A stretch of DNA of 64,000 bases from Escherichia coli (lineage in GTDB: Bacteria > Pseudomonadota > Gammaproteobacteria > Enterobacterales > Enterobacteriaceae), in NCBI RefSeq assembly GCF_024298765.1, contig NZ_CP101211.1; one strand, 5' to 3'. Below, one piece after another: positions 5,063-63,524 of this stretch; the first letter of the stretch is position 1, and every line of letters begins with the position of its first letter. A model generated the notes under the pieces. That model was not told the DNA's origin. It did no database searches and worked only from the letters and a program-made list of their open reading frames with translations. A program made the translations under genes and the position numbers.

Positions 5063-6247
5063 TCATGACTGTCCCTTGTTCATCTTATCAGCATGCTTAC
5101 GCAGGTACTCTTTCAGGTCAGCATGAGCGTTGATGATATCGTTCATTTCATCATTGGTCAGAACAAGCGTGTAAGTATCAGTACTGACAGATTCACCTTC
5201 TTTAAGCTTGGCTTCTTCAGCAATACGTTCAAAAATCGGGATCGCGGTGTCTGCAATGACGGTCACAGTCTTTTTGTTCAGAACGCTGGACATGGAAGGT
5301 GCTTTACCTGCCGGGTTCTGTTTAGGAGCGCTGTCCTTTGGAGCTGGAGCCGGTTCCTGTACCGGTGGCGTATCCAGCGTCTCCGTATTGCTTTCATCGT
5401 TCAGTTGATCCGGTACCGGGGTGTTATCGGTAGTATCATCTGCCGGTTGCTCAGCACCGATGTTTTCCGGAGTCTGCGGATCTGCCATGCGCTCTTCTAC
5501 CTTGGCAGCTTTGACGAATTTCAGCGTGTTTTTCGTCGCCTTGCCATAGATGGAGATCGCTTTGTTGATGTTATCTACCGCATCCTCACCGCTGTACATA
5601 TACTCGTCCAGTGCAACGTACATGCTCACCTGATCGCTCACAAGCATGGTCTGTAGTTCAGAAGGCAGGTCCAGTACGCGAACCATCTGGCGAAGATGCT
5701 GCTCTGATTTACCACGTTTTTTTGCCAGTTCCGCAAAGGTCTTAGGCTCTTCTTTATCTTCAACCAGACGCTTAATTGAAAGCGCTTCAGCTACGACAGA
5801 CAGCGCCAGGTTGGAGTTGCCGGTCAGGGTGAAGAGTTCTGCTTTTGAAGCGCTACCGCGAAACTCTTCGCAGCGAATACGAGTAATGCGTTCACGCCCT
5901 TCTGCTTCCAGCTGGCGGTTTGCAATAGCGATGGAACGGATACGGCAAGCCCCCTGACGCAGTACAGGTACGCCATTAACCATCTGAACAACGATAGGCG
6001 TCACGCTGAACGGGTCTTCCATGTAGGCATCGGCCAGGCTGTTCAGGTGTTCCACAACGTGAGGCATTGAATAGTAGAGCTCGCCCATACCGGCCGTGCG
6101 GGTGTTAAAGCCTTCCTGCTCTACAACAACCGAAGGGTCAATGATAAGGCCGTTGCCTTTACGGGCACCGTTACCAGTGCGTTCCAGGTAACCACGAAGG
6201 CTGATTTCGTTGCTGTTGTTTTTTACTTCAGTTTCGATTGCGGACAT
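5063..6247 (-). CDS. ParB-like nuclease domain protein (394 aa)
   Basis: ParB/Srx-type N-terminal box (GVPVLRQGACRIRS, compare paralog VRQGHCRLK at 58095..59258); Pro/Asp-rich acidic linker; two palindrome copies upstream. Confidence 0.75.
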   Translation of the reverse strand: MSAIETEVKNNSNEISLRGYLERTGNGARKGNGLIIDPSVVVEQEGFNTRTAGMGELYYSMPHVVEHLNSLADAYMEDPFSVTPIVVQMVNGVPVLRQGACRIRSIAIANRQLEAEGRERITRIRCEEFRGSASKAELFTLTGNSNLALSVVAEALSIKRLVEDKEEPKTFAELAKKRGKSEQHLRQMVRVLDLPSELQTMLVSDQVSMYVALDEYMYSGEDAVDNINKAISIYGKATKNTLKFVKAAKVEERMADPQTPENIGAEQPADDTTDNTPVPDQLNDESNTETLDTPPVQEPAPAPKDSAPKQNPAGKAPSMSSVLNKKTVTVIADTAIPIFERIAEEAKLKEGESVSTDTYTLVLTNDEMNDIINAHADLKEYLRKHADKMNKGQS

Positions 6248-6315
6248 TTTTGTTCTCTTTTTTGGTTGGTTGTTTAACTGCGCTACAACACAACAATACC
6301 AGGTTCGACATTTTT

Positions 6316-6326
6316 CCTAATAGGTT
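6316..6326 (-). promoter_or_regulatory. CCTATTAGG element adjacent to palindrome, candidate -35 region for ParB-like gene
   Basis: variant of the GGTTATTAGCC element; 16 bp upstream of a TATTGT -10-like hexamer on the minus strand. Confidence 0.35.
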
Positions 6327-6335
6327 GCGGAGAAG

Positions 6336-6350
6336 AAAAAGTAACTTTTT
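6336..6350. promoter_or_regulatory. AAAAAGTAACTTTTT palindrome copy
   Basis: exact palindrome ~90 bp upstream of ParB-like start. Confidence 0.5.
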
Positions 6351-6462
6351 TTAAAAATTTTCCTGAGGCAATACTACTCGATCCGTCCGTTTTAAATCTT
6401 CACAACAGTGGGCCGTTTTTACGTTTAAGCAAAATAACTGGTTCAGAAGGTGACTCAGAGAG

Positions 6463-6475
6463 AAAAGTTACTTTT
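6463..6475. promoter_or_regulatory. AAAAGTTACTTTT palindrome copy
   Basis: second copy ~215 bp upstream of ParB-like start, with the extended form ...AGAAAAGTTACTTTTCCGG. Confidence 0.5.
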
Positions 6476-6662
6476 CCGGTTGTCTGGGCCAGTGATGGGA
6501 GAGTGGCAGGACAGGAATGGCTAAACCGGTGCGGGTCTCTTGTAAGTCGCAGGGGATTCAGGAGATATAGAGGTAAACTGGTACGTTCAGTTTTTGGATT
6601 GAGCCGGGCTTTTGGCCCGGGCTTAAGGAAGCAGAAATTTGAACGAACTGGCAGGTAATGCT

Positions 6663-8293: not shown

Positions 8294-8389
8294 TCCAGCG
8301 ACACCCCCTGCGGCTCTACTACCGGGCCGCAGTCTGCTCCTGCCCAGATGGTGCCAGTGGTGTAATGAATTTGTTTAATAAGGCTAAGT

Positions 8390-9402: not shown

Positions 9403-9432
9403 ACGGCAGGTATCGCCTGTCATTTTACCCTT

Positions 9433-14762: not shown

Positions 14763-14903
14763 CGGTTGCCTTCCATTCAGGGAGAATTCTCAGTAATTAC
14801 ATCACACCTGAAGAGAAACTATTTTCGTATAAATGAGCATTTTCGACATATCAGAGGGGGGGTTTACTCATAAATGAGGTAGTAAGGGTCACACTTGAGG
14901 TGA

Positions 14904-14914
14904 AAGTTACTTTC
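14904..14914. promoter_or_regulatory. AAAGTTACTTT palindrome copy
   Basis: ...GTGAAAGTTACTTTCCTGG...; ~145 bp upstream of 14559..14762. Confidence 0.5.
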
Positions 14915-17886: not shown

Positions 17887-17897
17887 AAAGTAACTTT
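17887..17897. promoter_or_regulatory. AAAGTAACTTT palindrome copy
   Basis: ...GTTAAAGTAACTTTCCCGG... Confidence 0.5.
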
Positions 17898-20485: not shown

Positions 20486-20617
20486 TGATGATCCTTTTGT
20501 TTAGTTCCCCGATTCCGGGGGTGAGTGAATTAATTTAAATTTATATTTGTCTGGTTTAATTAGAACGTTTCCAGGCTATGCGTAAACAGGTAATGCAAAG
20601 GCTGTATCAACAGGATT

Positions 20618-20629
20618 AAAGTTACTTTT
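20618..20629. promoter_or_regulatory. AAAGTTACTTTT palindrome copy
   Basis: ~135 bp upstream of 20246..20485. Confidence 0.5.
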
Positions 20630-25665: not shown

Positions 25666-25678
25666 AAAAGTAACTTTT
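25666..25678. promoter_or_regulatory. AAAAGTAACTTTT palindrome copy
   Basis: exact 13-bp palindrome. Confidence 0.5.
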
Positions 25679-29877: not shown

Positions 29878-29890
29878 AAAAGTAACTTTT
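29878..29890. promoter_or_regulatory. AAAAGTAACTTTT palindrome copy
   Basis: exact palindrome ~170 bp upstream of 29331..29708. Confidence 0.5.
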
Positions 29891-32556: not shown

Positions 32557-34947
32557 TTATGTTTGAGGGAATTCTATAGCAAATGTGGCCGTGCCAGATT
32601 GACCACTTACAGCGGGAGTAACGGGATACGTGCGCTCTTCACCATTACCAAGATCCAGTGACAGCGATTTAGTTTCACCAGGCTGGACCGTAACTCCGGC
32701 AACCGTAACGCCGAACTGGGCATTTTTCTGAACAGTCAGGGTTCCGTTTAACTGTCCGGTAATGATAGAACCGTCCTGACGCCGCAACACACTGGTTCGG
32801 ATGATGGCCAGCGGCGTGTTGTCCGTTGCTTTCAGTGCTACGGCTGTGGCCAGCGTCTTGAGATTATCCAGCATAATCAGATTCGCAGGCTGGTAGGTAA
32901 AATTAAGCGTTTTAGTGGTCCGGTTACCTGATTCGTCAATAGCCAGTGCCTCCAGATGATACATCTGTCCCGATTCGTCAGTGTTGGGGAAGATTCTGGG
33001 GTATTCCGGAATAAAGACATCCTTGGATAACGGCGTGAATGCCAGGGTGACCTTTTCAGAGTTAGGTCCACCAGCGAGCTGAAGCGATGTCAGGGAAGCA
33101 TCCCCAGAGGCATCAGTAACGCTTATGCGAAGGTTCTCAAGCCCTTTAACCAGTTTTCCTTCTGCGTCTGCGCCATTAAAACTGAACGCGATAACCGGAA
33201 GCGTTGAGTCAATTTTCAGCGGTGCATTAAGCGTTTTGGTTCCGGTGTTTCCAACAAGATCCGTGGCAGAGACGCTAACCACCGTATAATCCCCGTCCGG
33301 TAGACCAGCGTATGAGAAGGTGGCGTTTTTGGTTTTATAATCGCTTTCACTGACGGTCACAGGCTTCAGCGTGAAAGGTTCCCCCCGGGCATTTTTAAGG
33401 GTGGCTTCGAAAACTTTGGTATCCCAGTAGCTGATGTTCCAGGCGTTGACGCGATCATTATCGGTGGCCGTCATAGTGATTGTCTTGGAGGCCTTGTTTA
33501 CCTGAGCGACATTAACCACCGGTGGGTTGTTATCCCAGATAACCGTAAAATTACCAGCAAGCGCATCGAATATGCTGTCACCATCTTTTCCCGAGTAAAG
33601 GTGCAGATACTCAAATCCTTTGTCACTGGTGTAGTTGAAGTTAACCGTCATCTCGCATGAACTTTGTCCGATAGGTATAGTGCAGAACCAGGCTGCATTT
33701 TTTACCGTTCTGAACTTTTGCACGTATGGTCGGGGTTCAGCGGTTACCTTTATGCGGCTAATGGTGGCGGTTTTAACGCTGATTGAGGCCTGAGTTAACC
33801 ACTCACTGGTATCACTCCGGTACATCTCTTTAGCCACTATCTTCGGGGCTATTTCCATCGCCGGGGCTGGAGTGAAGTTGAGGGAGTTATGATGAATTCG
33901 TCTTACTCCTCCTGCCAGAGTCTGGAATTCATGATAAGTATCCCCCACATTGGGATATATGTATTTGAAAGTATAAATATTATAAGTGCTATCGGACGTC
34001 TGGAAATTCGAGTCCGCCCAGCCATATTTGGAACCGTTAACAGCAGTAAAGTCACTTTTTTTCCTTAATACCCGTACGGAAATAGGGTTCTGGAAGACGG
34101 TCATGCCAGACTGATAAGTGACCCATGATCCGGTAGTGGCGTCCTGCACCTGGATGATATCGTCAGGCTTAACCCGATCAATTACGCTTCGGCGGCTTAG
34201 TTCGATCCTGTTTCCCGCTTTGTCATAAAGGTAGATCCCCACTTTATATTCAGAGCGGTTTTCCGGTGCCAGGGCATTGCTGCTTGCGTCGGCGACTTGA
34301 ACGGTTACGCTACCTTCCACTGTATTAATTTCCGCTGGCTTTTTACGCTCCACTCCAGCGGCATCGGTTATGAAATATTCAGCATTAGCAAGCCCGGAAC
34401 CTTTATCACTCAGTCCATTAAAGACCAGTGCCTGGACGCTGGCGTACTGCATACCGGCTGGTACTGAAGTGAAGATCGCTTCGCTGCCAAAGTTCCACCC
34501 GTTTCTCGTATAACTTATGGTACCCGTTGCCGGAGGCGTTCGGTCAATTGCAAGCGGGTAATCCTGCCGGGAGACCTCCTTCCCTTGCAAGTCGGTAATC
34601 ACCTCTCTGAGGGTGAAGCTATCTTCTCCCATCGCTGGTACGGTCAGAGTCTTGCCGTAATAATCAAAGCCTGTCGAAGATGTGGTACGGTCATCTACGG
34701 TAACCAGGCTGCTTTTCGTGCTCCAGATGAGGCTCCCGTCACTTTTCAGCAGACTGAGCGTAATATAACGGTCCAGACCGGAAATAACGGCAACGTCAAA
34801 GCTCGTTACCGGATTAATCCATACGGATGCAGGCGATACGGTCTTTTTAACGTTCAGGGTATCTTTAAAGCTGAATTCTGCGATTTCAGCGGAAGCTCCT
34901 GCGCTGAAACCTGCAAATGCAATAAGCAGGGCTAGTTTGATTTTCAT
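32557..34947 (-). CDS. secreted Ig-like repeat protein, paralog 1 (~796 aa)
   Basis: Sec signal peptide MKIKLALLIAFAGFSAGASA; repeated D-x-T-P-P domain starts; paralog of 40500..42920 and 48582..51038; start chosen at the internal Met with AGGAGA RBS. Confidence 0.7.
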   Translation of the reverse strand: MKIKLALLIAFAGFSAGASAEIAEFSFKDTLNVKKTVSPASVWINPVTSFDVAVISGLDRYITLSLLKSDGSLIWSTKSSLVTVDDRTTSSTGFDYYGKTLTVPAMGEDSFTLREVITDLQGKEVSRQDYPLAIDRTPPATGTISYTRNGWNFGSEAIFTSVPAGMQYASVQALVFNGLSDKGSGLANAEYFITDAAGVERKKPAEINTVEGSVTVQVADASSNALAPENRSEYKVGIYLYDKAGNRIELSRRSVIDRVKPDDIIQVQDATTGSWVTYQSGMTVFQNPISVRVLRKKSDFTAVNGSKYGWADSNFQTSDSTYNIYTFKYIYPNVGDTYHEFQTLAGGVRRIHHNSLNFTPAPAMEIAPKIVAKEMYRSDTSEWLTQASISVKTATISRIKVTAEPRPYVQKFRTVKNAAWFCTIPIGQSSCEMTVNFNYTSDKGFEYLHLYSGKDGDSIFDALAGNFTVIWDNNPPVVNVAQVNKASKTITMTATDNDRVNAWNISYWDTKVFEATLKNARGEPFTLKPVTVSESDYKTKNATFSYAGLPDGDYTVVSVSATDLVGNTGTKTLNAPLKIDSTLPVIAFSFNGADAEGKLVKGLENLRISVTDASGDASLTSLQLAGGPNSEKVTLAFTPLSKDVFIPEYPRIFPNTDESGQMYHLEALAIDESGNRTTKTLNFTYQPANLIMLDNLKTLATAVALKATDNTPLAIIRTSVLRRQDGSIITGQLNGTLTVQKNAQFGVTVAGVTVQPGETKSLSLDLGNGEERTYPVTPAVSGQSGTATFAIEFPQT

Positions 34948-35081
34948 GGGTTGTCTCCTGATCAGGTTCCCCATGATACTTTTTCAGTGTTCGAGATCTT
35001 TTCGGGAAAATAGCTAATTTTAATGTTTTTCTTTTCTGCCCGGCGGGACTTGTTTTGTTTACGTAAATGCAAAAATACAAG

Positions 35082-35095
35082 AAAAGTTACTTTTT
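35082..35095. promoter_or_regulatory. AAAAGTTACTTTTT palindrome copy followed by TGATAG
   Basis: ~110 bp upstream of paralog 1; extended match to the copy at 51259. Confidence 0.5.
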
Positions 35096-40499: not shown

Positions 40500-42920
40500 A
40501 TGAAACATCTCGCTTTTATTACTGCTGTAGCCGGACTCGGTATGTCTGTTCAGGCCCCAGCTCAGATATATGAATCGGCCTTTAAGGACACGAACGGTAT
40601 TGAGATCCACGCCCCGTCTTCTCGTCTTATGCTTAATCCGGCATCACCGGTAACTTTGACACTTATTTCAGGTCTTGATCGTTTCGTTAATGTCAAAGTC
40701 ACGAAAGACACTGGAACTGTCATTCTTAATACTACGACTACACGGACGGGTGTATCAGACCGACTAACAGCTGCTGACGGTAGTGAGTTCTACGGCAAAA
40801 AAGTAACTTTGCCTGCTTTGGGTGAAGGCAAATTTGTCGTTCAGATAAACGTGTTAGATCTCAATCAGAAGCCTGTAGCGACCTATAACTATAACTGGCT
40901 AATTGATGTCACCCCTCCAGCGGCAAATGCTCTTACCGCTAATACTGGTTCTGGCTCTACCGCTGGTGACGTGTGGAAGCTTGGATTAGAGGCAACGGGG
41001 CAGTATGACTTCACCTCTTCGGGCGTAAGTGATGCAAATGGTATTGATAAGGGCCTAATATATATTTACAGGCAGGACGGTAGCCTCTACAGCACTACAC
41101 AGATGCAGTATGACGTATCCGGCCAAAAGATGTACCACACTTACTCTAAGAATTCAGTTAAGGGAACCGGAATACCAGACAGCAACCTGGATGAAGACTT
41201 TACTGCAAAAGTTGTTATCTTCGATAACGCAGGTAATAGCCGAACGCTGCCAACTCAAAAATTTCGCTACGACAACACGCTGGGTGAGATGACACTGTGG
41301 GCCGTTCATGATCCAAATACGTCTTCCAGCGTCGTACCCGGGGTTTCTAATTATCCGGCTTACAAAGCCGGTATGGTCGTTAACGAAAACCCTATTCGAT
41401 TAGTCTACCGGATCCCAAAATCTAACTACCGTGCTTATTCAGAAGGTGGGCTTCAGTTCATCAATCAATATTCCGCCCCCAAAGAGATAGCTGTAGACAG
41501 CACTTATGCTTATGTTGAAATGACTCTTCCCTATGGCTCAATTAATGGGGATATGGCTCGTATGGCGAACTTTGGCCAGTGGGGAGGGTATTATCCGTCA
41601 TACAGCCTCGTTCTAAACCCATCTGCAAACCAAACGCCTGCATTTGCGGGTACCTGGGTAGATTTCCTCGATGATAAGGGGAACTGGGTTAAGTGGAAGG
41701 ATTTTGAGAGTGTGGCTTCATCACGACTGCCAATTAAAATTTCCCGACTTCGTTTTAACGTTGAAGCCCGGCCCTTTGCACAGGAGATCGGCGGTAAGGC
41801 GACCTGCACCATTCCGGCAGGAAAAACCTCGTGTGAAGCGCCTGAGACGTTTGATATGGCCTTGGGTACCCAGGGCTACAATAGAATCCTTTACTTCGTT
41901 CGCAGCATCAGCAATCCCATTTTGCGGTCTGAGCAATGGATTATGACACGCTGGAACAATAAACAACTGCCGGTAATAAACTCGATATCATATGACGAGA
42001 CTAACAAGCAGCTGGATGTACTGGCGTCACTTGAAGGCGATGGTAACTGGTTCGACTCGGTCTCATTGAGGGAATTTTATCTTTCCGATAAGAACACCGG
42101 TACCCGGATGTCACCAACAGGCGTAATCAAATCTCGTATCTCAGGTAACTACACGATTGCTTATGATTTATCCCGTCAGTCTGAAGGAAAATACAACGTT
42201 GAGGTCAACATCAGGGACTTCTTCCAGAACCAGACCAATAAAACTTTCGGAGAAATTGCTCTGGATAACACTCCTCCGACAGTGGCCATAACATTCGACG
42301 GAAAGCCGGTAAAAGACGATACGGTAGTGTACGGCCTGGAGAACCTCAGGATCGCTCTGGCAGATAATCTGACAACCCCGAGGATAACCCGTCTTCAGCT
42401 CGTAGGTGGCCCCACAGCTGATAACGTTGAGCTTACGTGGTCACCGGCAGGCAAAGATACATACATGCCTGAGTATCCGAGGCTGTTCCCAAATTTCGAA
42501 CCATCTGAAAATTATTCAATTAGCGTAACAGTTGCCGATAGTCAGTCGAATACCAAAACCTATACTCAGAAGTTCAGTTATCTACCGAATAACCTTGTGC
42601 AGTTACATAATCTACGCACATTGTCGGTCAGTTCACCTCTCAAAACGACAGATGGCGTACCACTTGCGTACCTGTCCACTAACGTTCTGCGTAAGACAAA
42701 TGGAGAAATTGCTAAAGGGGTCCAGAACGCAACGCTGACTGTGCGGAAGGATGCAGCCTTCGGTATTAAATTTAATGGGGCACAGGCGGCTCCAGGCGAG
42801 TCAGTTGAGGTGCAAATAGATATGGGCCAGGGGGATAATCTTCTGTTACCCGTTTATCCTTCCGAAAATGGGAAAGTTGGCACCTCAGAATTCATGATTC
42901 AGATCGACGAGTTGAAGTAA
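40500..42920 (+). CDS. secreted Ig-like repeat protein, paralog 2 (806 aa)
   Basis: signal peptide MKHLAFITAVAGLGMSVQA; D-x-T-P-P domain starts; C-terminus ~55% identical to paralog 3 by eye. Confidence 0.7.
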   Translation: MKHLAFITAVAGLGMSVQAPAQIYESAFKDTNGIEIHAPSSRLMLNPASPVTLTLISGLDRFVNVKVTKDTGTVILNTTTTRTGVSDRLTAADGSEFYGKKVTLPALGEGKFVVQINVLDLNQKPVATYNYNWLIDVTPPAANALTANTGSGSTAGDVWKLGLEATGQYDFTSSGVSDANGIDKGLIYIYRQDGSLYSTTQMQYDVSGQKMYHTYSKNSVKGTGIPDSNLDEDFTAKVVIFDNAGNSRTLPTQKFRYDNTLGEMTLWAVHDPNTSSSVVPGVSNYPAYKAGMVVNENPIRLVYRIPKSNYRAYSEGGLQFINQYSAPKEIAVDSTYAYVEMTLPYGSINGDMARMANFGQWGGYYPSYSLVLNPSANQTPAFAGTWVDFLDDKGNWVKWKDFESVASSRLPIKISRLRFNVEARPFAQEIGGKATCTIPAGKTSCEAPETFDMALGTQGYNRILYFVRSISNPILRSEQWIMTRWNNKQLPVINSISYDETNKQLDVLASLEGDGNWFDSVSLREFYLSDKNTGTRMSPTGVIKSRISGNYTIAYDLSRQSEGKYNVEVNIRDFFQNQTNKTFGEIALDNTPPTVAITFDGKPVKDDTVVYGLENLRIALADNLTTPRITRLQLVGGPTADNVELTWSPAGKDTYMPEYPRLFPNFEPSENYSISVTVADSQSNTKTYTQKFSYLPNNLVQLHNLRTLSVSSPLKTTDGVPLAYLSTNVLRKTNGEIAKGVQNATLTVRKDAAFGIKFNGAQAAPGESVEVQIDMGQGDNLLLPVYPSENGKVGTSEFMIQIDELK

Positions 42921-43022: not shown

Positions 43023-43034
43023 AAAAGTTACTTT
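43023..43034. promoter_or_regulatory. AAAAGTTACTTT palindrome copy (not upstream of a minus-strand gene start)
   Basis: lies 3' of paralog 2 and next to the iteron-like array. Confidence 0.4.
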
Positions 43035-43074
43035 AATCGTACGTTTCCAGCGATGCTTTCAAAAGACAATGCAT

Positions 43075-46385: not shown

Positions 46386-47474
46386 TTAGCTGGCGTTGCT
46401 GTTCTTTTTCTGGCTTCGAAGACTACGAATATAGCGCAGTTCTTCAGCGGTTAAATCATGGACGGTAAGAACATCATCGCCGTCAATCGGGTCAGCTGGT
46501 GGGCATAACTCACCTTCTAAAACAGAAGACCCTGAGTTCTCTTCTTCATCTTCAACCACTTCTAAAGGAGGCTGAGTATTGTTCAAATTCAGATCGGGAT
46601 CCCGCTTATGAATCTGGAAGTATACTTTTCCGTCTTTCTTAATTTCGGTGTACTTGAGGTATCCTATCGATGCCAACTCTTCAAGAGCCTTTCTCACGGT
46701 AGCATTCTGACTATTTGCTCGTGTTTTGAGGTTCAGACGATTTTTCAGCCGAGTAAGGGATATCGGTATAGGATTTGGCGGTAATGACTCTATGAACGTA
46801 TAGAGAGCCTGGGCGCTTTCCTTCTTGGCCAACTCCTTAATTGCCTTCAGCTGCATCAAAACCTTATGATCGTATTGATAGAGCTCGAAAATCTTAGGAT
46901 CAACCTGAAGGACAACCTGATCTGATTCCGGGTCTAACAGGGCAGACTGTACCAGATGCGTTGTATAGACTTTGGACGAGTTATTACTGGTGAACGACAA
47001 GGTAACGGATGCTAACCTGCGTAAGGAGGCGTCTATACGTTTTCTGGACGCTGTAGATGAGCGATAATTTTCAGGCGTACATAGCTTGAGGAATTCAGTG
47101 AATTTTAAGCTTATCGTGTCATTGTTAATCGGATGATTGGCATAGGTTCGAATGATGCCCATCCACGTCTTAAAATCTACTGACATATTAAGACGCTCAC
47201 CGACAATTGAAATATTGGTGAACCCCTCGCTCTCCATTAAAGAGAGCGTCTGTAACTCTTTCGTTGCGTCAAAGCCAACCGTTTTATATTCCCGATTTTG
47301 ACGCCCCACACTCTTTGGTGATGGGACGAACAGCCCGAGCCGCATCAAAGCAATAGACTGCACCGTACGGTTGCTGTTAGGACGCAAAATGATGTCTTTA
47401 CCTGATTCTTTCTCTCTAACAGAGAAAGCCCTGGTGACCAGGTCCTGCTGCTCAGTATCTTTCTCTTTAGTCAT
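46386..47474 (-). CDS. repA: RepFIB-family replication initiator RepA (362 aa)
   Basis: ESAQALYTFIESLP.P.PISL.RL..RLNLK and N-terminal NTVQ..ALMRLG.FVP match RepFIB/P1-type RepA; flanked by iterons. Confidence 0.85.
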   Translation of the reverse strand: MTKEKDTEQQDLVTRAFSVREKESGKDIILRPNSNRTVQSIALMRLGLFVPSPKSVGRQNREYKTVGFDATKELQTLSLMESEGFTNISIVGERLNMSVDFKTWMGIIRTYANHPINNDTISLKFTEFLKLCTPENYRSSTASRKRIDASLRRLASVTLSFTSNNSSKVYTTHLVQSALLDPESDQVVLQVDPKIFELYQYDHKVLMQLKAIKELAKKESAQALYTFIESLPPNPIPISLTRLKNRLNLKTRANSQNATVRKALEELASIGYLKYTEIKKDGKVYFQIHKRDPDLNLNNTQPPLEVVEDEEENSGSSVLEGELCPPADPIDGDDVLTVHDLTAEELRYIRSLRSQKKNSNAS

Positions 47475-47599: not shown

Positions 47600-48250
47600 A
47601 CTCATTAAAACTTGGCAAAAACTCTTTGCATACAATGACCTGCAACTCTTATCAACAACGGATCAGATCAAGTTAAAAAGATCTAATGAAAAGTCACTAC
47701 TATTGTCGCTCTGATCACTACTGATGTCAAAAAACTCATTACCAACGTTATAATAATCACTACTAATGTCAAAATAATCACTACTGTTGTCACTGATCAC
47801 GTCTCAGGCCTTGTGCCGTCTGGCCTGGAGGCAGCGGGGATCTCTTTTGATCTATCAGGAACACTAAGGTACTAATTATTGGAACTACCTTGTGGAAAAT
47901 GGGGATAAATAAATGCTTAGTTCTTATACAGGTCTCAACTTGCCTCCCTGATAAAAACTGTCGTCAAAGCTAAATCACAGCCACAGGCATTTTCGGTGGA
48001 TAAATTTTTGAGAAATAGAAGCATACATGCAGACTCGTGTCGCAAGTAATTGAAAGTAATGATTTATTTAAATAATGCGAGTCACCTTACCTCACAGTGG
48101 AAGTTTAAGTCTAACCTCACTACCATTGTCACTTAAAATCATTACCAACGTCGAAATAGTCTCTACCATTGTCTTTTAAGTCACTCCCGTTGTCACTTAT
48201 GTCGCTACTGTTGTCAGTGACAATGCTCCAGCCCAGTAACCATGCGGCCT
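47600..48250. other. putative iteron-type replication origin
   Basis: two sets of ~5 direct iterons (TCACTACYRTTGTCA, ~21-23 bp spacing) at 47693-47800 and 48116-48228; GATC cluster at 47661-47690; AT-rich spacer. Confidence 0.6.
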
Positions 48251-51193: not shown

Positions 51194-51207
51194 AAAAGTA
51201 ACTTTTT
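51194..51207. promoter_or_regulatory. AAAAGTAACTTTTT palindrome copy
   Basis: ~155 bp upstream of paralog 3. Confidence 0.5.
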
Positions 51208-51258: not shown

Positions 51259-51271
51259 AAAAGTAACTTTT
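51259..51271. promoter_or_regulatory. AAAAGTAACTTTT palindrome copy followed by TGATAG
   Basis: ~220 bp upstream of paralog 3. Confidence 0.5.
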
Positions 51272-56155: not shown

Positions 56156-57847
56156 TCATAGGACTTCCTCTTGTTGAATACGTTCGGCGTACAGGATGCG
56201 AACCGAAACGGTCGTGTTTTCAAACTCGTTCTCAAAAACGTCCATCCATTCCGTCCGGAATTCTTCCCCCAAAAGGTTATCGAGCCCCTGAAGAGATAAT
56301 GGAAGAACGGCTGCTAGAGATCCCCCGGCTGCGAGATGAGATGCAGCTGCCTGGAGATGCAGCCTGGCCCGGTTATCGGCAAAAGGTGGGTTCATCACGA
56401 CATAATCAAACTTCTTCTGTTGATTAGACTTAGACCATGTGAGGAAGTCAGCTTCTGTCGTATCGTATCCCTTAGCCCGGGAGATAAGGCAATTCAAAGT
56501 ATCAAGCTCGATGCCAGTAACGATCACACCGGCAGGGAATGATTTAAGCAAATCCGCATGGCCAATATTAGGCTCCAGGAGGGTATCCCCTTCCCCTGCA
56601 CCAAGCAGGGAAGATACATATTCGCTGATTCGGCAAGATGAAGGGTAAAACTGATGCGATACAATATCAGGCATCTCCCCTATCTGGCCGATGTAACGAA
56701 TAACCTCACACGGATCATAGGAAAATGTCACATCGTATTTTGTTACTGTTGCCCCTAAGAACCGAAGGGTGTCAGCGGCAACACTCGAAGATTTGCGTTC
56801 GGCGAGAGACCCTAAAGATGTCCAGCAACTCCATTTATTGTCCCCGTCATTTTTAAACATCAGTTCAGAAAGCTGCATCCGGGTATCAAAGTCGATGCAC
56901 TGCTTAAGTACAGGGAATGCCTCCAAAGATTTCTTGCTATGAGCCATACGGTCGGCAGGTAATGCCAGCGGTACGATAGCTGATAAAATATTGTTAAGCC
57001 GCTCGGCGATATCAGGGTGGACGTCAATATGCATTGATCCATTTTTGTAAACCCTGAAACGAATACTGTTGCCATCGATGCAGATCCATTTTCTGAACCC
57101 CTCATGTTCGACCAACGCCTCAACCAATGATTTGGTGTTATGGATCGCCTTCACCTGTTCGCCACGGAAGAATGCGCATATAACGCGGAGCTCGCTCAGC
57201 GGTGAAATGCCAGACTCTTTAAAATCCACCCTTAATTTCTGCCAGGGGTATTTAGACGGCTCGCAAACTCCGGTAGTGATCATGCGGGTGGAGAACCCAA
57301 AAGCTTTGTTTGTCTTGTGACTGCGGCTCAGAGACTGGAAGACGTCGTAAACCCTTTCTTTAATAAATTGATTGCGGTCATTAAGCAAAGCAACGACTGT
57401 GCCCACTACAGCGTCAGCTGTGAAATCAGGGATCACCTGAGGCGGCATAATATAACGGTCGGCCGTAAACTGCTTATCCCATTCGTTACGTTTGGCATCC
57501 GACATGATAGGCAAAACATCAGTGAGTGCCATAACGCGTTTCCAGTATTCTGATCTCAGAGCGTTTTCTGCGAACAAAGCATCCGCTTCTGAGATGCTGT
57601 GGTTGTAGCCTGAGAGATAAGAATAAAGTTTCTGGTGATTGTGGGTTTTGAACTGGACAGCCATGAGTTTCAACAAGCAGAGTTCATCATTATAGGACTC
57701 AACAAGATCCGCGATAATGCCGAGCTCTTTGCGCATATCTGGAAGAAATGTTTCAGGAGAGCTAACCACCAGGCTATGAGAGGTTGTTAAAGCCAGTACG
57801 CTGTGACCTGCATTATCGGGTTTAGCTTCAGAATCAAGAGATGACAT
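56156..57847 (-). CDS. orphan DNA methyltransferase with large N-terminal domain (563 aa, NPPF motif)
   Basis: C-terminal VVMNPPF catalytic motif; N-terminal ~400 aa unassigned. Confidence 0.65.
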   Translation of the reverse strand: MSSLDSEAKPDNAGHSVLALTTSHSLVVSSPETFLPDMRKELGIIADLVESYNDELCLLKLMAVQFKTHNHQKLYSYLSGYNHSISEADALFAENALRSEYWKRVMALTDVLPIMSDAKRNEWDKQFTADRYIMPPQVIPDFTADAVVGTVVALLNDRNQFIKERVYDVFQSLSRSHKTNKAFGFSTRMITTGVCEPSKYPWQKLRVDFKESGISPLSELRVICAFFRGEQVKAIHNTKSLVEALVEHEGFRKWICIDGNSIRFRVYKNGSMHIDVHPDIAERLNNILSAIVPLALPADRMAHSKKSLEAFPVLKQCIDFDTRMQLSELMFKNDGDNKWSCWTSLGSLAERKSSSVAADTLRFLGATVTKYDVTFSYDPCEVIRYIGQIGEMPDIVSHQFYPSSCRISEYVSSLLGAGEGDTLLEPNIGHADLLKSFPAGVIVTGIELDTLNCLISRAKGYDTTEADFLTWSKSNQQKKFDYVVMNPPFADNRARLHLQAAASHLAAGGSLAAVLPLSLQGLDNLLGEEFRTEWMDVFENEFENTTVSVRILYAERIQQEEVL

Positions 57848-58094: not shown

Positions 58095-59258
58095 TTATTC
58101 TGCGTCCGGCTGTGGGTCAGTATCCTGATCGGTCTCTTCCCCTGCCTTCTTAGCATTTTTTTTACGTGGGTATTTTGGCTTCTCACCATTAAGTTTTGCC
58201 TGACGATTCTCCGCACGGCGAAGCTGCTTGTTCTCTGATTCTGTGATCTCTTTTGAAAGATTTCTCAACATCTCCAGAGTACTGCGGTTCAACGTAATGT
58301 TGATTTCTTCGTCAGCACTTGAATCTGTCAGCTCCGGCAATTCAATATCCCCCAGTTTCTGTAATAAGCTGGTGGTGATGAGTTTGACGCCTTCTACGGC
58401 TTTTGTGGCAATAACCGGCGGAATCCGTGCTGGCTTGAAGTCTGAAGGTCTGACTCGTACCTGACCATGTTGGGTTTTTTTCACCGTGATGCCATTCGCA
58501 TCGGCCTGCTCAAGTTCTGCGATCATCTTCTTGATACGTGAAATTGCTTCTGTTTCGCCGAGCTCATCGATCAGTGAAAGCACGTTAACATACGAAATAG
58601 CGTCAGCATGAATCCATTTCTTGATAACAACAGAACAGGTTGTCAGGCGGATAAGAGAACTGATGGTCGTCGGGCTTTTATTTTCACGTTGAGCAATTCG
58701 TTCGAGTGACCAGCCAGCAAGAGAATGTAGGCGACGATAGGACTCGCCAAGCGCAACAGGAGAAAGCGCAAGACCACGGTTACCATCAATGGTCGCGAGC
58801 TCACAGCCAATTTCATCTTCTTTAATCTCAACGCAAAGGATTGTGATGTCATGATCTTCATCACATGCCATCATTGCGGCTTTTAAACGGCAGTGCCCCT
58901 GGCGAACAAAAGGTACCCCATCAATGACACGTACTCGGATAGGGTCTACATAGTCACCTCGAATGTAGGCATTCTTGATGTTGTAGATGTGTTCTTCAAC
59001 CTCAGGGAGCTTATAGTAATCGTCACCCATTCCCATTTCGCGGGAGTTGAAGCCTGGCGTGACCTGAATTACTGAAGGGTGGATAGCCCATGCTTTCTGG
59101 TCACTTACTTCAGTACAAAGTTCAGGGTTTGCATCACGGAACTGTTTAAGCCCAGTGACGTAACGGCCTGTGCCAGTAACTACTGAAAAGGCAACATGGG
59201 CCGTTTTAAAGACCTTGTCATTAGCTTGCTGTGTAGGTTCTGTCAGTAAAACACTCAT
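58095..59258 (-). CDS. ParB-like nuclease domain protein (387 aa)
   Basis: GVPFVRQGHCRLKAA ParB box; paralog of 5063..6247. Confidence 0.75.
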   Translation of the reverse strand: MSVLLTEPTQQANDKVFKTAHVAFSVVTGTGRYVTGLKQFRDANPELCTEVSDQKAWAIHPSVIQVTPGFNSREMGMGDDYYKLPEVEEHIYNIKNAYIRGDYVDPIRVRVIDGVPFVRQGHCRLKAAMMACDEDHDITILCVEIKEDEIGCELATIDGNRGLALSPVALGESYRRLHSLAGWSLERIAQRENKSPTTISSLIRLTTCSVVIKKWIHADAISYVNVLSLIDELGETEAISRIKKMIAELEQADANGITVKKTQHGQVRVRPSDFKPARIPPVIATKAVEGVKLITTSLLQKLGDIELPELTDSSADEEINITLNRSTLEMLRNLSKEITESENKQLRRAENRQAKLNGEKPKYPRKKNAKKAGEETDQDTDPQPDAE

Positions 59259-59334: not shown

Positions 59335-59350
59335 CAAAAAAGGTACTTTT
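59335..59350. promoter_or_regulatory. degenerate palindrome variant AAAAAGGTACTTTTT
   Basis: one extra G relative to the core; ~80 bp upstream of ParB-like start. Confidence 0.3.
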
Positions 59351-59606: not shown

Positions 59607-60440
59607 TTGACTCGACATCTCAGACACATGCCGATAATCAAATGGGCTGGTGGAAAAACGAAACTGATGCCTTTCATCAGCCATCACTACCCACACGATC
59701 ATAGTTGCCGGTGGGTAGAACCCTTTATAGGCGGTGGTGCCGTTTTTCTGAACATGTTTGCACAAAATGCATTGCTTGCAGATAGCAATCCAGACTTGAT
59801 CAACCTATACAGGACTATTCAAAGACAGAAAACTAACTTTATAAATCAGGTCCAAAACTTGGCGGATAAAACCTTTGTCGAAAAGGACTACTATGAGATG
59901 AGGGACCGTTTCAACAAAACCTGTATTTCTGGTCAATCGCTTCAAAGAGCGGCTTTGTTTTACTCCCTGAATCGCCTGGGCTATAACGGTATGTGCCGCT
60001 ATAACTCAGAAAGAATCTATTCAGTGCCGTGGGGGAAACATACAGAACTGAAGCTTGACCTCAATAAAATAGACTACCTTTCATTTCGTCTTTCAGGTAT
60101 TGAACTGATCACCGCTGGTTTTGAGGAGACTCTGGCCGCAACCGGTGAAGGAGATCAGATTTACTGTGATCCGCCATATGACAAAACAAGCAAAACTAGT
60201 TTTGTCAGTTACGATGGTAAACCGTTCAGCCAAAGCGACCACGTGCTGTTAGCAAATATGCTCGTTGACGCTCACAGAAAAGGCGCTGCTGTTGCGATAT
60301 CAAATAGCCTGACATCATTCACTTTGGGCCTCTATGAAGAGCGTGGATTCGTCATACACAGACTCAGCGCTTACCGATCCGTAGGAAGTAAGCCGAATAC
60401 ACGGAAAACGGAAACAGAAATACTGGCCGTGCTGAAATAG
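59607..60440 (+). CDS. Dam-family N6-adenine DNA methyltransferase (orphan)
   Basis: IKWAGGK N-terminal motif, EPF.GGGAVFLN, NRLGYNGMCRYN and DPPY catalytic motif as in E. coli Dam; true start may be the ATG at 59628. Confidence 0.85.
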   Translation: MTRHLRHMPIIKWAGGKTKLMPFISHHYPHDHSCRWVEPFIGGGAVFLNMFAQNALLADSNPDLINLYRTIQRQKTNFINQVQNLADKTFVEKDYYEMRDRFNKTCISGQSLQRAALFYSLNRLGYNGMCRYNSERIYSVPWGKHTELKLDLNKIDYLSFRLSGIELITAGFEETLAATGEGDQIYCDPPYDKTSKTSFVSYDGKPFSQSDHVLLANMLVDAHRKGAAVAISNSLTSFTLGLYEERGFVIHRLSAYRSVGSKPNTRKTETEILAVLK

Positions 60441-60448
60441 AGTAAATT

Positions 60449-61114
60449 CTAATCAACTGGGCTAATCCATTCCTCAAAAGTTAATACCTCAGGGTAAGTT
60501 CGTTGAACATAAGGTATAAACTGAAGCTCTTCTATTCTCCGGTCGCCCCTCTTTCCTTCGCAAATAAATGAAATGAGTCCTTGCTGAGAAAGGCCAGTAA
60601 GGACGCTCATAAGTCTTATATTTAGACTTTTAAGCTGTAAGTCGTTATTAATGTCCTCCACTTTATGAGAGCTCTGGCCTGAACGTTTAAGATACTCGTA
60701 AACCATGAAATTCGAATTTCGTCGTTTTAACAATTTTTCGGTTATGCATTCCTGAATGAAGTCGCCAAGAGCATCTAAAAGCGGACTGAGAACTACCGGG
60801 AAAGTTAATGTGTAACTTTGAGAAGTTTTAGACAAAGTGAATGAGTTTAGAAAGCTAAAGTTTAGTCTCTTTTTTGAATATGGAACATAAGCGACAAGAG
60901 TAGTCGACATAACAGTAAGTAAAGCTTCAAGATGGTTCACTGTTATTAAAGTGGCTTTATCTGTATTTCTAAGATTATGGAAATCAATAAACGCTACTCT
61001 TGAACGGCTAAGCCAATCTTGTACTTTAATGTCGATAGAAAATTGCGAGATATGATTTGAACATTCATTTTGGGTGATAGGGCATGCAGACGAAAGATGG
61101 TTATGGATTATCAT
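60449..61114 (-). CDS. hypothetical protein (start placed at internal Met so that the palindrome is upstream)
   Basis: long ORF 60449..61306; upstream palindrome at 61202 suggests the shorter start; start uncertain. Confidence 0.35.
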   Translation of the reverse strand: MIIHNHLSSACPITQNECSNHISQFSIDIKVQDWLSRSRVAFIDFHNLRNTDKATLITVNHLEALLTVMSTTLVAYVPYSKKRLNFSFLNSFTLSKTSQSYTLTFPVVLSPLLDALGDFIQECITEKLLKRRNSNFMVYEYLKRSGQSSHKVEDINNDLQLKSLNIRLMSVLTGLSQQGLISFICEGKRGDRRIEELQFIPYVQRTYPEVLTFEEWISPVD

Positions 61115-61201
61115 GCATAGCACAAAAAAAGGAAAACGGCAGGCTGTGGGGCATTGAAAACCGGTTAAAGAAAGCTTAGACGTTTCATATGCGCTTACCG
61201 G

Positions 61202-61214
61202 AAAAGTAACTTTT
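61202..61214. promoter_or_regulatory. AAAAGTAACTTTT palindrome copy
   Basis: CCGGAAAAGTAACTTTTC. Confidence 0.45.
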
Positions 61215-61537
61215 CTTAACGTTGGCTTTGACGATGTTCTTGCATTTTTACAAATGAAACCGAGACCCAGATCATTGTGCATTTTAAAGTCCATCTCCAT
61301 CATCACCTTTTAGCCTTAACTGTATGGTATTGGTATACAAAAAATTAAAATTATAATTAATAAGATTATCATTTTTTTACAATAGAAAAGGTTCTGATAG
61401 AGGAGAATTTAAATGTAAAAGATTTATACTCGCAGATCTTTATGAGGGATAAAACCCATTGCGTAAGCAACAATATTACGTGAGTGAGTCCTAACGACAG
61501 TTAAAGTCTTGGCTCTATATTTAAGCAGCAAAAACAT

Positions 61538-62254
61538 TTAACTGTCTTGGAGTTTATTTAACTTAAAAACTGTTATTGCAGCATAATTTTTCGAATCAAA
61601 TTCATAGAATTTTCTGACTTTTCCAGTCAAATGATAACGTTCACCCAATAAAATGTGATCCTGTTTATCGGCCGTTAAAGCGATCCCGTCATTTCTAACT
61701 TTACCAGTAAATGTAAAAAAATAACTCCCTTTACTTTTTGCGTACGCGGCCCTGACTTCAGTAAATGTTAGTTCAATGCTTATGACCTGGCCGATATTGT
61801 AGCTATGTTTTAAAATTTCTTGTTCATTTTCCGGAGTTTCAGACAACATCACATCAAAAGTTGTAAAGAAACAATCCAGCTGGCGTTCTGTCAAGAAACG
61901 GTTATTGTCTAATTGCGCCAATATACTATTAGAAAACTTAGTGTTAGCCTTTTTTGCTTTCTCAATAAGGACGTGGTTTCTGGATTTCCATGCTTCGAGT
62001 GTTGGGTTAACACGCAGTTCCGGAATGTTATCGAGAAAGGTAATTGGCTCTAGTGCCACTAATTTTTCAATAATGGGTCCAACTGTTTGTACCCCATGAC
62101 ACTTTTCACATAAATCAGCCCCTTTGTGGCCTGTGCCCGCACATTCGTTACATTCTCTTTCGATAGGTGCATAATAATTTCCATCTCCGTTAAGTGATAC
62201 ATTCACTGAGGCTGGTACCATATGACCATCAAGAGTAAAGAAAAGAGATTTCAT
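61538..62254 (-). CDS. zinc-ribbon protein (238 aa)
   Basis: CNECAGTGHKGADLCEKCHG (CxxC...CxxC). Confidence 0.5.
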   Translation of the reverse strand: MKSLFFTLDGHMVPASVNVSLNGDGNYYAPIERECNECAGTGHKGADLCEKCHGVQTVGPIIEKLVALEPITFLDNIPELRVNPTLEAWKSRNHVLIEKAKKANTKFSNSILAQLDNNRFLTERQLDCFFTTFDVMLSETPENEQEILKHSYNIGQVISIELTFTEVRAAYAKSKGSYFFTFTGKVRNDGIALTADKQDHILLGERYHLTGKVRKFYEFDSKNYAAITVFKLNKLQDS

Positions 62255-62451
62255 TTTCGAAACACCTCCAAACGTGCCTCTACGATTGCTACAGCTTCTT
62301 TCACAGTTTTTTCATAGTGGTCATGCCCTTCAGGAAATTGATCAAAACGTTTACCGTGTTCTAACTCTTCCATGTTGCGTTTAAGGACTTCATGAGTTAG
62401 AAGCAAATCACTATAATTATCGATAAGAGTCAGCTTTATAGGTTTAATCAC
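62251..62451 (-). CDS. hypothetical protein (66 aa)
   Basis: ORF overlapping the downstream gene by 4 nt. Confidence 0.35.
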   Translation of the reverse strand: MIKPIKLTLIDNYSDLLLTHEVLKRNMEELEHGKRFDQFPEGHDHYEKTVKEAVAIVEARLEVFRK

Positions 62452-62468
62452 TCAACTAATCCTCGTTT

Positions 62469-63524
62469 TTAATATTCCTTAAGGAGATCTCGAATTTCCA
62501 GAAGCTCTTCTAATTTTGGTTTAGAAACAATGATTGCTGTATTTTCGTCGTTAAGTAAAGACAATAAAATATTTAGCTTTTCATCATTCAAGATTATTTG
62601 AACACCATCATTGGAAAATATTACATTATTACTATTAACATTTTTGAACAAGTGTGCACTATCTCTACCAAATTTTAGTTCTGTTTGAGTATTCGTTATA
62701 GATTCCGTATGTGTACTTTCCACAAGCTCAAGAAATTCAGATTTTAGCCGTTCTGTTTTCTTATGCGAGAGGCGCTTAATACCCAAAGTCTTACGAGTGA
62801 CTGCCGAATTTTTCTTTTCTGGTCCGCCTTTATTTAAGGTGTCTGGTCCTGCTCCAGCTGCATTGTGTTCAGGTATGCCTACAATTTTGCTCGTTGTAGT
62901 CTCAATATTCTTAACGCCAGGTAAGAAACCTTCTATATGTTTTAAAACCATTTTGTGATCGTTGGAATATTTTAACATTATTTCAATGGCGAGCGTTTTT
63001 TTGATTAGATTTAGGCTAATCAAATGTTGAAGCTCTAATGGCATATCAAGGATTTTTAGCATATTACGAATTGCGGTAGTTGATCGTTGATATCGCATTG
63101 CTAGTTCTTCAACCGAATACCCGAGACTAACAGCATGAGCTAATGCATGAGCTTGCCCAACCGGATTTAGCCCATTGCTTCTGTTACCATCGAGGTTCTC
63201 AAGGTATTCTTCAATTTCGTTTTTATAATCGATTAGGATAACAGATAATTTTGGAATATTAGCACCTTCAGAAATTGCTAATTTTAAGCCATGAAAACGA
63301 GTATGACCTTGACGAACTAAATATTTACCTTTTCTTTTTACGACCTTGATCATATCAACCTGCCTTCCTTCCTTAAAGGCTTGTTTGATTGACACAATCA
63401 TCGACTTGACAGGTTCTTGTTCGTAACACAAATCTCCGATTACCGCCTCTCGGGGATTAAATCCCTTTTCAATTTCAACTAGATTAGTATCCACTTCAAT
63501 GACTGTATGTTTGCTGTTGTTCAT
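62469..63524 (-). CDS. ParB-like nuclease domain protein (351 aa)
   Basis: GFNPRE and YLVRQGHTRFHG ParB-box signatures. Confidence 0.75.
   Translation of the reverse strand: MNNSKHTVIEVDTNLVEIEKGFNPREAVIGDLCYEQEPVKSMIVSIKQAFKEGRQVDMIKVVKRKGKYLVRQGHTRFHGLKLAISEGANIPKLSVILIDYKNEIEEYLENLDGNRSNGLNPVGQAHALAHAVSLGYSVEELAMRYQRSTTAIRNMLKILDMPLELQHLISLNLIKKTLAIEIMLKYSNDHKMVLKHIEGFLPGVKNIETTTSKIVGIPEHNAAGAGPDTLNKGGPEKKNSAVTRKTLGIKRLSHKKTERLKSEFLELVESTHTESITNTQTELKFGRDSAHLFKNVNSNNVIFSNDGVQIILNDEKLNILLSLLNDENTAIIVSKPKLEELLEIRDLLKEY

Follow-up and report, generated by a model that had tools for sequence, protein, structure and literature searches.

What do three ParB-like proteins do on a stretch of plasmid that offers them no ParA partner? 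The question is raised by a 64,000-nucleotide segment of Escherichia coli DNA (contig NZ_CP101211.1 of assembly GCF_024298765.1; hereafter the window), in which three open reading frames (ORFs), all intact and on the minus strand, encode divergent ParB-like proteins that are here named A (ORF 5063-6247), B (ORF 58095-59258) and C (ORF 62469-63524). An earlier note on this DNA had described them as nuclease-domain paralogs that are unlikely to serve classical partition and had listed nuclease, transcriptional silencing and anti-defence roles. The reading favored here, to which a probability of about one half is assigned, is that A, B and C are orphan site-specific DNA binders of the KorB/BisD/Noc type that act as regulators or DNA organisers; of the roles listed, silencing or regulation is the best guess that can be made from their sequences, and a partition-adaptor or nuclease role is less likely. 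The most interesting part of the finding is a network of copies of one 13-bp palindrome that extends over the plasmid backbone and includes sites upstream of A and B themselves.

Many IncHI2/IncHI2A plasmids of Salmonella, E. coli and Enterobacter match the right-hand 7 kb of the window at 100% identity; each of them carries a MOBH relaxase and an F-type mating-pair system, the combination that is referred to here as H-type. The window is IncHI2 backbone from a resistance plasmid, and the complete 278-kb plasmid record NZ_CP037959.1 was used as the annotated reference. At 95% identity or above, the segment spanning B and C is present in 1117 plasmid records and A in 984, and the three are conserved backbone genes of both IncHI1 and IncHI2 plasmids. 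RefSeq labels all three 'hypothetical protein', the NCBI cluster name in other records is 'DNA-binding protein', and of the orthologs in plasmid R27 (R0153 for A, R0042 for B and R0037 for C) the first two are annotated as 'partition protein'. A literature search for functional studies of R0042, R0153 or the palindrome returned only an R27 transcriptome paper (PMC7366339). Beyond IncHI1 and IncHI2, A and B are also kept in more distant H-type plasmids, with A-like proteins falling from about 65% identity in IncHI1 to about 35% in Klebsiella MOBH/MPF_F plasmids, and IncC plasmids carry a related orphan family member in addition to their own ParA and KorB-domain ParB. A word-indexed search of 5.8 billion protein clusters placed about 80 clusters in the close family, the named ones being from Enterobacterales, and an exhaustive profile search gave 325 representatives at E<=1e-30 and 34,053 matches at E<=1e-3, with the family grading into the ParB superfamily as the threshold was loosened. 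In phages, family members are found in early-gene regions; that of the lambdoid phage Mulock, for instance, is placed between cII and O.

Sequence and structure comparisons support membership of the ParB superfamily. In BLASTP alignments A and B are 32% identical over 224 amino acids (E 6e-27), B and C 30% identical over 174 (E 9e-22), and A and C 26% identical over 179 (E 6e-10). The Pfam HTH_ParB (helix-turn-helix, HTH) model matches all three weakly but significantly (E 1.5e-5 to 1.7e-4), TIGR00180 scores them at 29.5, 32.5 and 33.6 bits against a curated cut-off of 58.45, and phrog_1033, 'ParB-like partition protein', matches each at E 1e-21 to 3e-28. The KorB domain of Pfam was matched by 11 of 148 family members, and a profile of these members searched against the PDB retrieved solved structures of ParB/Spo0J (E 3e-21), Noc and KorB over the N-terminal domain and HTH. 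The AlphaFold model of B (predicted local distance difference test 90, predicted template modelling score 0.79) found ParB bound to cytidine diphosphate, Noc and KorB as its best Foldseek matches (E 4e-7 to 1e-4 over about 200 residues), with the best TM-score (TMt 0.58) given by the KorB-KorA co-crystal 8qa9. Judged by sequence, A, B and C are true paralogs that diverged anciently within one uncharacterised ParB/Noc/KorB subfamily. A hidden Markov model (HMM) built from them detected no fourth paralog in the window or the whole plasmid, and no concealed ParB domain in the DndC-like, methyltransferase or DUF4942 proteins, which had been considered as candidates.

The three proteins have a full ParB architecture, comprising an N-terminal domain of the nucleotide-binding fold, an HTH and a C-terminal helical domain. 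The nuclease-domain label finds no support in this complete DNA-binding arrangement, and Pfam ParB_N (PF02195) matched 0/148 family members at E<=1e-3. That the paralogs 'differ greatly elsewhere' was likewise an overstatement, since homology runs from end to end, through the N-terminal domain, HTH and C-terminal module, and only an acidic, proline-rich linker and the N-terminal extension are variable. In the shared C-terminal module, which probably mediates dimerisation, a basic KVTxK-like stretch is followed by two helices with a 'YTLTL' strand between them. In A, the recognition helix of the HTH keeps the ParB-type S..H..R pattern. In A (residues 15-21) and in many members outside IncHI (P0059, P0065, P0066), a short peptide, (N)SLR(A/G)(L/Y)L, stands ahead of the ParB-like domain. 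C lacks this peptide, which might serve for interaction as a distinct counterpart of the ParA-binding motif of partition proteins.

The VRQGxxRxxA 'ParB box' reported earlier is real and aligns with ParB Box II, but it is not arginine-rich. The Box II regions read LRQGACRIRS in A, VRQGHCRLKA in B and VRQGHTRFHG in C, and in alignment with the canonical GERRxRA only the glycine and the last arginine (GxxR) are kept, two of the three canonical charged residues being replaced (glutamate by histidine or alanine, arginine by cysteine or threonine). Numbered along each translation, the retained GxxR arginine is R102 in A, R124 in B and R74 in C. The family consensus is R[DQE]GH[CH]R, to which the GHCR of B conforms; the His-Cys pair is conserved family-wide, A lacking the histidine and C the cysteine. 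In Box III, ENLQR is replaced by DGNR or TGNS, and an invariant GFNxR occupies the position of the canonical NPxQPR. The alignment check suggested in the note thus gave matches to ParB and KorB and, at the same time, a cytidine triphosphate (CTP) pocket whose canonical residues are mostly replaced.

The absence of a ParA gene ahead of any paralog was confirmed. The window contains only spurious Walker-like strings and no ParA-type Walker-A ORF; the upstream neighbours are a divergent DUF5417 gene for A, a divergent dam gene for B, and the RepHIA origin and rep gene for C. The ParA/ParB and ParM that the plasmid does encode are in the Tra2 region, 16-22 kb past the right-hand edge of the window. 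Directly upstream of parA-parB lies a tandem array of about 13 copies of a 249-bp repeat (NZ_CP037959.1, L003:12124-15594), across which the PLSDB gene table lists no gene and which is probably the centromere of the plasmid's real partition system; the ParB encoded there is not detected by the HMM of A, B and C. No clustered centromere-like array adjoins A, B or C, and the regular expression [LFI]G[KR]G[LFI], by which the ParA-binding motif has been defined (PMC12704722), finds no match in them. A, B and C are not canonical partition ParBs, because they have no adjacent parA, no ParA-binding motif, an altered Box II, TIGR00180 scores below the cut-off and no ParB_N match; of the tests for a canonical ParB, they pass only those of fold and architecture. 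The note's doubt about a classical partition role was well placed, the more so because the plasmid has its own ParAB and repeat array.

If not centromeres, which sites might these proteins recognise? The note had named palindromes as candidates, a suggestion that gained substance. An operator search upstream of A yielded two copies of AAAAGT(A/T)ACTTTT, that is, of a 13-bp palindrome, AAAAGTWACTTTT, with an 11-bp core, AAAGTNACTTT. The core occurs 15 times exactly in the window against 0.08 expected, a count that no shuffle reached, and 50 times in the 278-kb plasmid; the resistance region at 93-187 kb has only two copies of the palindrome, both within backbone islands. The 13-mer is the sole strongly enriched palindrome, and sequence conservation around its copies ends at 13 bp. 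In the reference stretch equivalent to the window (L001+L002), 11/14 copies are intergenic, where only 26% of the DNA is (P = 6e-5), and 3/14 are intragenic. Copies typically lie 80-220 bp ahead of the gene that opens an operon, with no fixed spacing to any promoter element, and they precede the Tra2 AC operon, the trhZ/parM divergent region, trhF and the oriT/mobI-trhR region, in addition to A (two copies) and B (one imperfect copy). Copies also lie near all three genes of the window that encode immunoglobulin (Ig)-like-domain proteins of about 800 amino acids (32557-34974, 40500-42920 and 48582-51038); because each has palindrome copies upstream or nearby, these genes seem to share a regulon with the tra operons. 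No description of the 13-bp palindrome was found in the literature searched. Paralog-specific palindromes were considered and discarded: TTTTTCGCAAAAA, upstream of B, is a short two-copy match, as is ATTTGCCAAAT, upstream of C, which is not kept in R27. The copies in the window are given in the table together with the principal genes.

Table. Coordinates, in the window, of the ParB-type paralogs, the palindrome copies and neighbouring features.
Feature	Coordinates	Strand	Remarks
Paralog A	5063..6247	-	394 amino acids; R27 R0153 ortholog; Box II GACR
Paralog A, parts	5063..6247	-	ParB-type N-terminal domain, ParB HTH, Pro/Glu-rich linker, conserved C-terminal module
Paralog B	58095..59258	-	387 amino acids; R27 R0042 ortholog; Box II GHCR; 55-residue N-terminal extension
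Paralog C	62469..63524	-	351 amino acids; R27 R0037 ortholog; Box II GHTR; without N-terminal extension
Palindrome GAAAGTTACTTTT	1288..1300		intergenic; ~160 bp upstream of minus-strand ORF 841-1125
Palindrome AAAAGTAACTTTT	6337..6349		90 bp upstream of A start codon
Palindrome AAAAGTTACTTTT	6463..6475		216 bp upstream of A start codon
Core palindrome AAAGTTACTTT	14903..14913		intergenic
Core palindrome AAAGTAACTTT	17887..17897		intergenic
Palindrome copy	20617..20629		intergenic; just 3' of DndC-like gene, upstream of next minus-strand gene
Palindrome copy	25666..25678		~206 bp upstream of minus-strand gene 25134-25460
Palindrome copy	29878..29890		~170 bp upstream of minus-strand gene 29331-29708
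Core palindrome AAAGTCACTTT	34048..34058		within Ig-like gene 32557-34974
Palindrome copy	35082..35094		~108 bp upstream of Ig-like gene 32557-34974
Palindrome copy, 1 mismatch	40799..40811		within Ig-like gene 40500-42920
Palindrome copy, 1 mismatch	43023..43035		just downstream of Ig-like gene 40500-42920
Palindrome copy	51194..51206		156 bp upstream of Ig-like gene 48582-51038
Palindrome copy	51259..51271		221 bp upstream of Ig-like gene 48582-51038
Variant palindrome AAAAGGTACTTTT	59338..59350		80 bp upstream of B start codon; divergent dam/B promoter region
Palindrome copy	61202..61214		within annotated 5' end of gene 60449-61306
DUF4942 protein	56156..57847	-	directly downstream of B; phrog_6263 'DNA methyltransferase', E 1.6e-112
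Dam-family methyltransferase gene	59607..60440	+	divergent from B
Intergenic region, C to RepHIA rep	63525..64000		AAATGC iteron-like repeats and GATC cluster, conserved with R27 (L018:40356-40889); no 13-mer copy

The motif is not confined to IncHI2. It is enriched in IncHI1 (11 copies in 41 kb), in a Klebsiella H-type plasmid (84 copies in 213 kb) and in a Photorhabdus plasmid, and in the Klebsiella plasmid the A-like gene is preceded by six copies within 870 bp and the B-like gene by two. At least two copies precede the A-like gene in 5/5 cases examined (one copy being mismatched in L024), and at least one copy precedes the B-like gene in 7/7 cases (imperfect in IncHI2), down to 35% protein identity. 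These cases include, beyond the plasmids just named, A-like genes of 45-50% identity and B-like genes on four contigs, the latter of 39-46% identity where scored. A covariation test, which asked if the motif changes along with A or B, failed; the motif is invariant from IncHI2 to homologs of 35% identity, so covariation does not tell which protein binds it. In the Klebsiella plasmid the palindrome is kept in the absence of a C-like gene, and C is therefore not needed for it. Long loading sites of the parS or bisS kind were not seen, in that no repeated palindrome with arms of at least 8 bp is conserved between plasmids. A different scattered perfect palindrome, (A)CTTTCACATGTGAAAG(T), which is parS-like with a centre expanded by 2 bp, was observed in the IncC plasmid NZ_KX786648.1 (L019) at 8651, 9730, 13313, 13772, 19087, 22423, 33467 and 36882, mostly between genes; one copy lies just upstream of parA and one ahead of the operon with the IncC orphan family member (WP_000268394), and the candidate binders are the ParA-partnered KorB-domain ParB and that orphan.

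From these observations a regulatory scheme can be proposed. Each of A, B and C would bind as a dimer to specific sites on plasmid DNA and, once bound, would act as an orphan ParB-type regulator or DNA organiser in the manner of KorB, BisD and Noc. For A and/or B the best candidate site is AAAAGTWACTTTT, and its presence upstream of both genes would then provide autoregulation. Since C is located at the RepHIA origin, and since some H-type plasmids retain the palindrome without it, a different, replicon-linked target is probable for C. As candidate binders, A and B have in their favour that no other ParB-type HTH protein of the plasmid lacks a known site. The sites of ParB-family proteins (parS, OB, NBS, bisS) are typically short, near-invariant palindromes. 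The lack of fixed promoter spacing fits a factor that acts at a variable distance, as KorB does (PMC11790492), and variable distance is tolerated by both KorB and BisD (PMC11790492; PMC12409273). Even so, that A and/or B bind the palindrome is put forward tentatively, at odds that fall short of even.

Several points weigh against this scheme. The palindrome precedes most backbone operons, so that finding it ahead of A and B is not specific; its copies are distributed in line with the HtdA regulon; and the operons activated by TrhR/TrhY (F, H, AC and Z) all carry it 150-250 bp upstream, so that TrhR/TrhY or HtdA could be what binds the 13-mer. The recognition helices differ among A, B and C and vary within orthogroups, while the motif is invariant, and the scattered palindrome was not seen near family members outside H-type plasmids, namely in phages and on a Pseudomonas-like contig on which no enriched palindrome was found. 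The tie of A, B and C to the palindrome is an inference. Furthermore, CTP-driven clamp-and-slide behaviour is doubtful for them on the evidence of their sequences, because the canonical pocket has lost the E and R of GERR and the N of ENLQR; according to a survey of orphan ParB-fold proteins, neither sequence nor AlphaFold3 predicts nucleotide specificity (PMC12704722).

In the most probable alternative, A, B and C may be ordinary members of the HtdA/TrhR/TrhY regulon, binding other sites or DNA non-specifically, with the palindrome being read by another factor, of which the TrhR/TrhY pair is the likeliest. Expression data from R27 bear on this and on the favored reading alike (PMC7366339). 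In an htdA mutant, 139/181 expressed genes are derepressed, including R0153 (the A ortholog, also induced at 25 C) by 15.6-fold and R0042 (the B ortholog) by 3.35-fold, and parAB, which lacks the motif, is HtdA-independent; R0042 is moreover among the most highly expressed genes on the microarray, at 6132 units at 25 C and 2278 at 37 C (PMC7366339). That 4/4 TrhR/TrhY-dependent operons (F, H, AC and Z) have the motif upstream counts for the same alternative, as do the C-terminal CxxC...CxxC zinc ribbon of TrhY and the precedent of the element ICEclc, in which the promoter-bound factor is BisC and not the ParB-like BisD (PMC12409273). TrhY (L007:20937-21449) ends in CEKC...CPRC, which is zinc-ribbon-like, and TrhR is encoded at L007:21451-22251. 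Against it, neither protein matched any Pfam, NCBIfam or PDB sequence, and neither has a detectable DNA-binding domain in these searches; a likeness to FlhC and FlhD, considered for TrhY and TrhR, was unsupported by the same searches. In addition, a near-invariant perfect palindrome with no fixed spacing and with 3/14 copies inside genes is more like parS, OB and NBS than like activator boxes, and no other repeated long palindrome is conserved between plasmids that could serve A, B and C as a separate loading site. Taken as a whole, this alternative is possible rather than probable, and its narrower element, that TrhR/TrhY or HtdA binds the palindrome, is a serious possibility a little short of an even chance, the remainder lying, A and B apart, with something else.

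Returning to the reading of A, B and C as orphan ParB-type binders, its fullest form is likewise possible rather than probable. In IncHI-type plasmids, including the clinically important IncHI1, IncHI2 and pNDM-MAR-like Klebsiella lineages, a network similar to those of KorB and BisD would operate, in which one or two orphans with the non-canonical GHCR pocket load at the 50-84 copies of AAAAGTWACTTTT. They would supply the DNA-binding component that the plasmid-wide HtdA/TrhR/TrhY regulon lacks and would link early genes and Ig-like surface proteins to transfer, with the third paralog devoted to the RepHIA origin.

The gene neighbourhoods suggest a further role, in which A, B and C would target or activate DNA-modification enzymes (for B, the Dam and DUF4942 proteins) as phage ParB-like activators do for thymine dioxygenases; such dependence of DNA-modifying enzymes on ParB-like proteins has a precedent (PMC13229309). 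The order dam/B/DUF4942 is shared by IncHI2, R27 and four contigs with B-like genes (the B-like proteins scored on two of them being 46% identical to B in L020 and 39% in L021), the DUF4942 protein is methyltransferase-like by sequence, orphan methyltransferases abound in the region, which also encodes a DndC-like protein, and a cytosine methyltransferase gene is found two genes upstream of one phage family member. This synteny is nevertheless absent from the Klebsiella and Photorhabdus plasmids, where B-like genes lie among tra and Ig-like genes, and A and C have no methyltransferase neighbour. There is neither fusion nor operon coupling, dam being transcribed divergently, and the phage activators lack the HTH that A, B and C keep. 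A role in modification is for these reasons improbable. A is set in a long run of uniformly oriented small genes beside the Tra1 relaxase operon, which includes orphan methyltransferases, HNH endonucleases, hok and a DndC/3'-phosphoadenosine 5'-phosphosulfate reductase-like protein of 794 amino acids (20735-23119; PADLOC DndC, E 4e-38) that has no Dnd partners and is kept in IncHI1. This protein and the orphan methyltransferases of the region (26303-27553, 59607-60440 and the DUF4942 protein at 56156-57847) suggest a DNA-modification or anti-restriction island.

Less probable still is that the paralogs are accessory centromere-binders, C for RepHIA being an example, which would use the plasmid ParA in trans or handcuff origins and thereby serve partition or incompatibility. 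C adjoins the RepHIA replicon, divergently, in IncHI2 and R27, and the intergenic region between them (63525-64000) is the probable origin of that replicon; the 'partition protein' annotation of R0042 and R0153 and the SLRxxL peptide kept in A and the wider family may be read in the same sense, as may the position of the C-like gene after a gene for an uncharacterised protein of about 520 amino acids in two distant H-type plasmids. That gene (L026:4310-5881 and L027:4373-5917) precedes the C-like gene on the same strand, has no family match, carries the 13-mer upstream and sits where IncHI1 and IncHI2 have the RepHIA replicon. Against such a role stand the missing ParA-binding motif and adjacent ParA, the lack of a clustered centromere-like array beside any of the three genes, the two partition modules that the plasmid already has, and the expression of A and B, which tracks conjugation conditions and is not constitutive like that of parAB (PMC7366339). 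An 81-bp tandem array of 11 copies (44995-45897, with related stretches at 47714-47792 and 48158-48216), which the earlier note had proposed as a binding site, was rejected as such. Its unit is an inverted pair of the core CACTACC[AG]TTGTC, which occurs 13 times in all, in and next to the array (44913-45840) and at 48118, on the far side of repHI2 (46386-47474), a gene that is flanked by 21-bp iteron-type repeats. The array has the appearance of iteron-type repeats that serve the RepHI2 replicon in copy control or incompatibility. The least probable proposal, that A, B and C are ParB/sulfiredoxin-fold nucleases or anti-defence effectors, can draw on the resemblance of the uniformly oriented region to an anti-restriction or early-gene island (orphan methyltransferases, HNH endonucleases, the DndC-like protein) and on the His-Cys pair in the pocket, but it is opposed by the lack of any PADLOC or Pfam ParB_N/nuclease match to A, B or C, by an HTH and C-terminal architecture typical of DNA-binding ParBs, and by the loss of the histidine in A and of the cysteine in C.

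IncHI plasmids spread multidrug resistance, including mcr-1, extended-spectrum β-lactamases and the multidrug resistance of typhoid. About three-quarters of the expressed genes of R27 are co-regulated via HtdA/TrhR/TrhY, and the gap that is addressed here is how this is achieved at the level of DNA; three conserved orphan ParB-type proteins and a backbone-wide palindrome provide a directly testable hypothesis for it. The diverged subfamily, with its GHCR Box II and missed as it is by Pfam ParB_N, joins a growing set of non-partition switches built on the ParB fold. Even if the link to the palindrome fails, the 'partition protein' genes of R27 are not partition ParBs, and the palindrome needs a binder.

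Among known systems, KorB of the IncP-1 plasmid RK2 is, like A, B and C, a plasmid ParB-family protein with an N-terminal domain, an HTH and a C-terminal domain. Its operator is TTTAGCSGCTAAA, a palindrome of 6-1-6 format, and the IncHI palindrome shares this format. Regulators of the KorB type have many dispersed palindromic operators on their plasmid, near promoters and including their own; the IncHI2 plasmid has a dispersed palindrome network (50 copies, some upstream of A and B), for which A or B is a candidate binder. KorB itself has 12 dispersed 13-bp palindromic operators at variable distances from promoters, and its CTP binding and its clamp-lock partner KorA have been shown experimentally (PMC11790492). 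KorB differs in that it doubles as the partition ParB, carrying a ParA-binding motif and working with IncC/ParA. No ParA accompanies A, B and C, which are three paralogs with a Box II of GHCR type and only candidate binders of the palindrome. With regard to a dual role of the KorB type, no ParA partner was found in the window or by motif, and no search was made for a KorA-like partner.

BisD of ICEclc is similar in being an orphan ParB-like protein of a conjugative element that controls transfer genes over a long distance (PMC12409273). Its action requires the GxxR arginine and is exerted together with a second, promoter-bound factor (PMC12409273), to which the requirement of IncHI tra operons for TrhR/TrhY offers a parallel. 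A C-terminal activator domain is unique to BisD, which is a CTP-binding and CTP-hydrolysing protein with just two 23-bp bisS loading sites (PMC12409273). The C-terminal module of A, B and C is the family's own, set apart from that of BisD without a comparison to BisDact, and no counterpart of the pair of long loading sites was found for them. Noc of Bacillus subtilis, likewise an orphan ParB paralog without ParA, has many palindromes scattered over its replicon, and Noc structures are among the top fold and sequence matches to the family; it differs in its canonical GERR and ENLQR boxes, its N-terminal membrane-targeting helix, its chromosomal location and its role in cell-division control.

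Canonical ParABS ParBs, including the IncHI ParB (R0019 in R27), share superfamily and domain order with A, B and C, which in contrast lack a parA neighbour, the LG(R/K)GL motif, GERR and an adjacent centromere array. Proteins of the ParB-like nuclease or sulfiredoxin type have a stand-alone or fused ParB_N domain without the ParB HTH, and A, B and C are the opposite, giving no match to PF02195 and possessing the HTH and C-terminal domain. The phage activators of thymine dioxygenases (PMC13229309) and orphan proteins of the ParB-CTPase fold (PMC12704722) are, like A, B and C, non-partition proteins of mobile elements, and the pocket residues of such orphans may be dispensable or bind other nucleoside triphosphates (PMC13229309; PMC12704722). 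The family of A, B and C also occurs in phages (phrog_1033); the ParB HTH of A, B and C has no counterpart in the phage activators, which are without a DNA-binding domain. Orphan ParB-fold proteins are common and linked to mobile elements (PMC12704722), and three copies in one window are still fairly called notable. Of all these systems, it is KorB, BisD and Noc that A, B and C most resemble in their logic.

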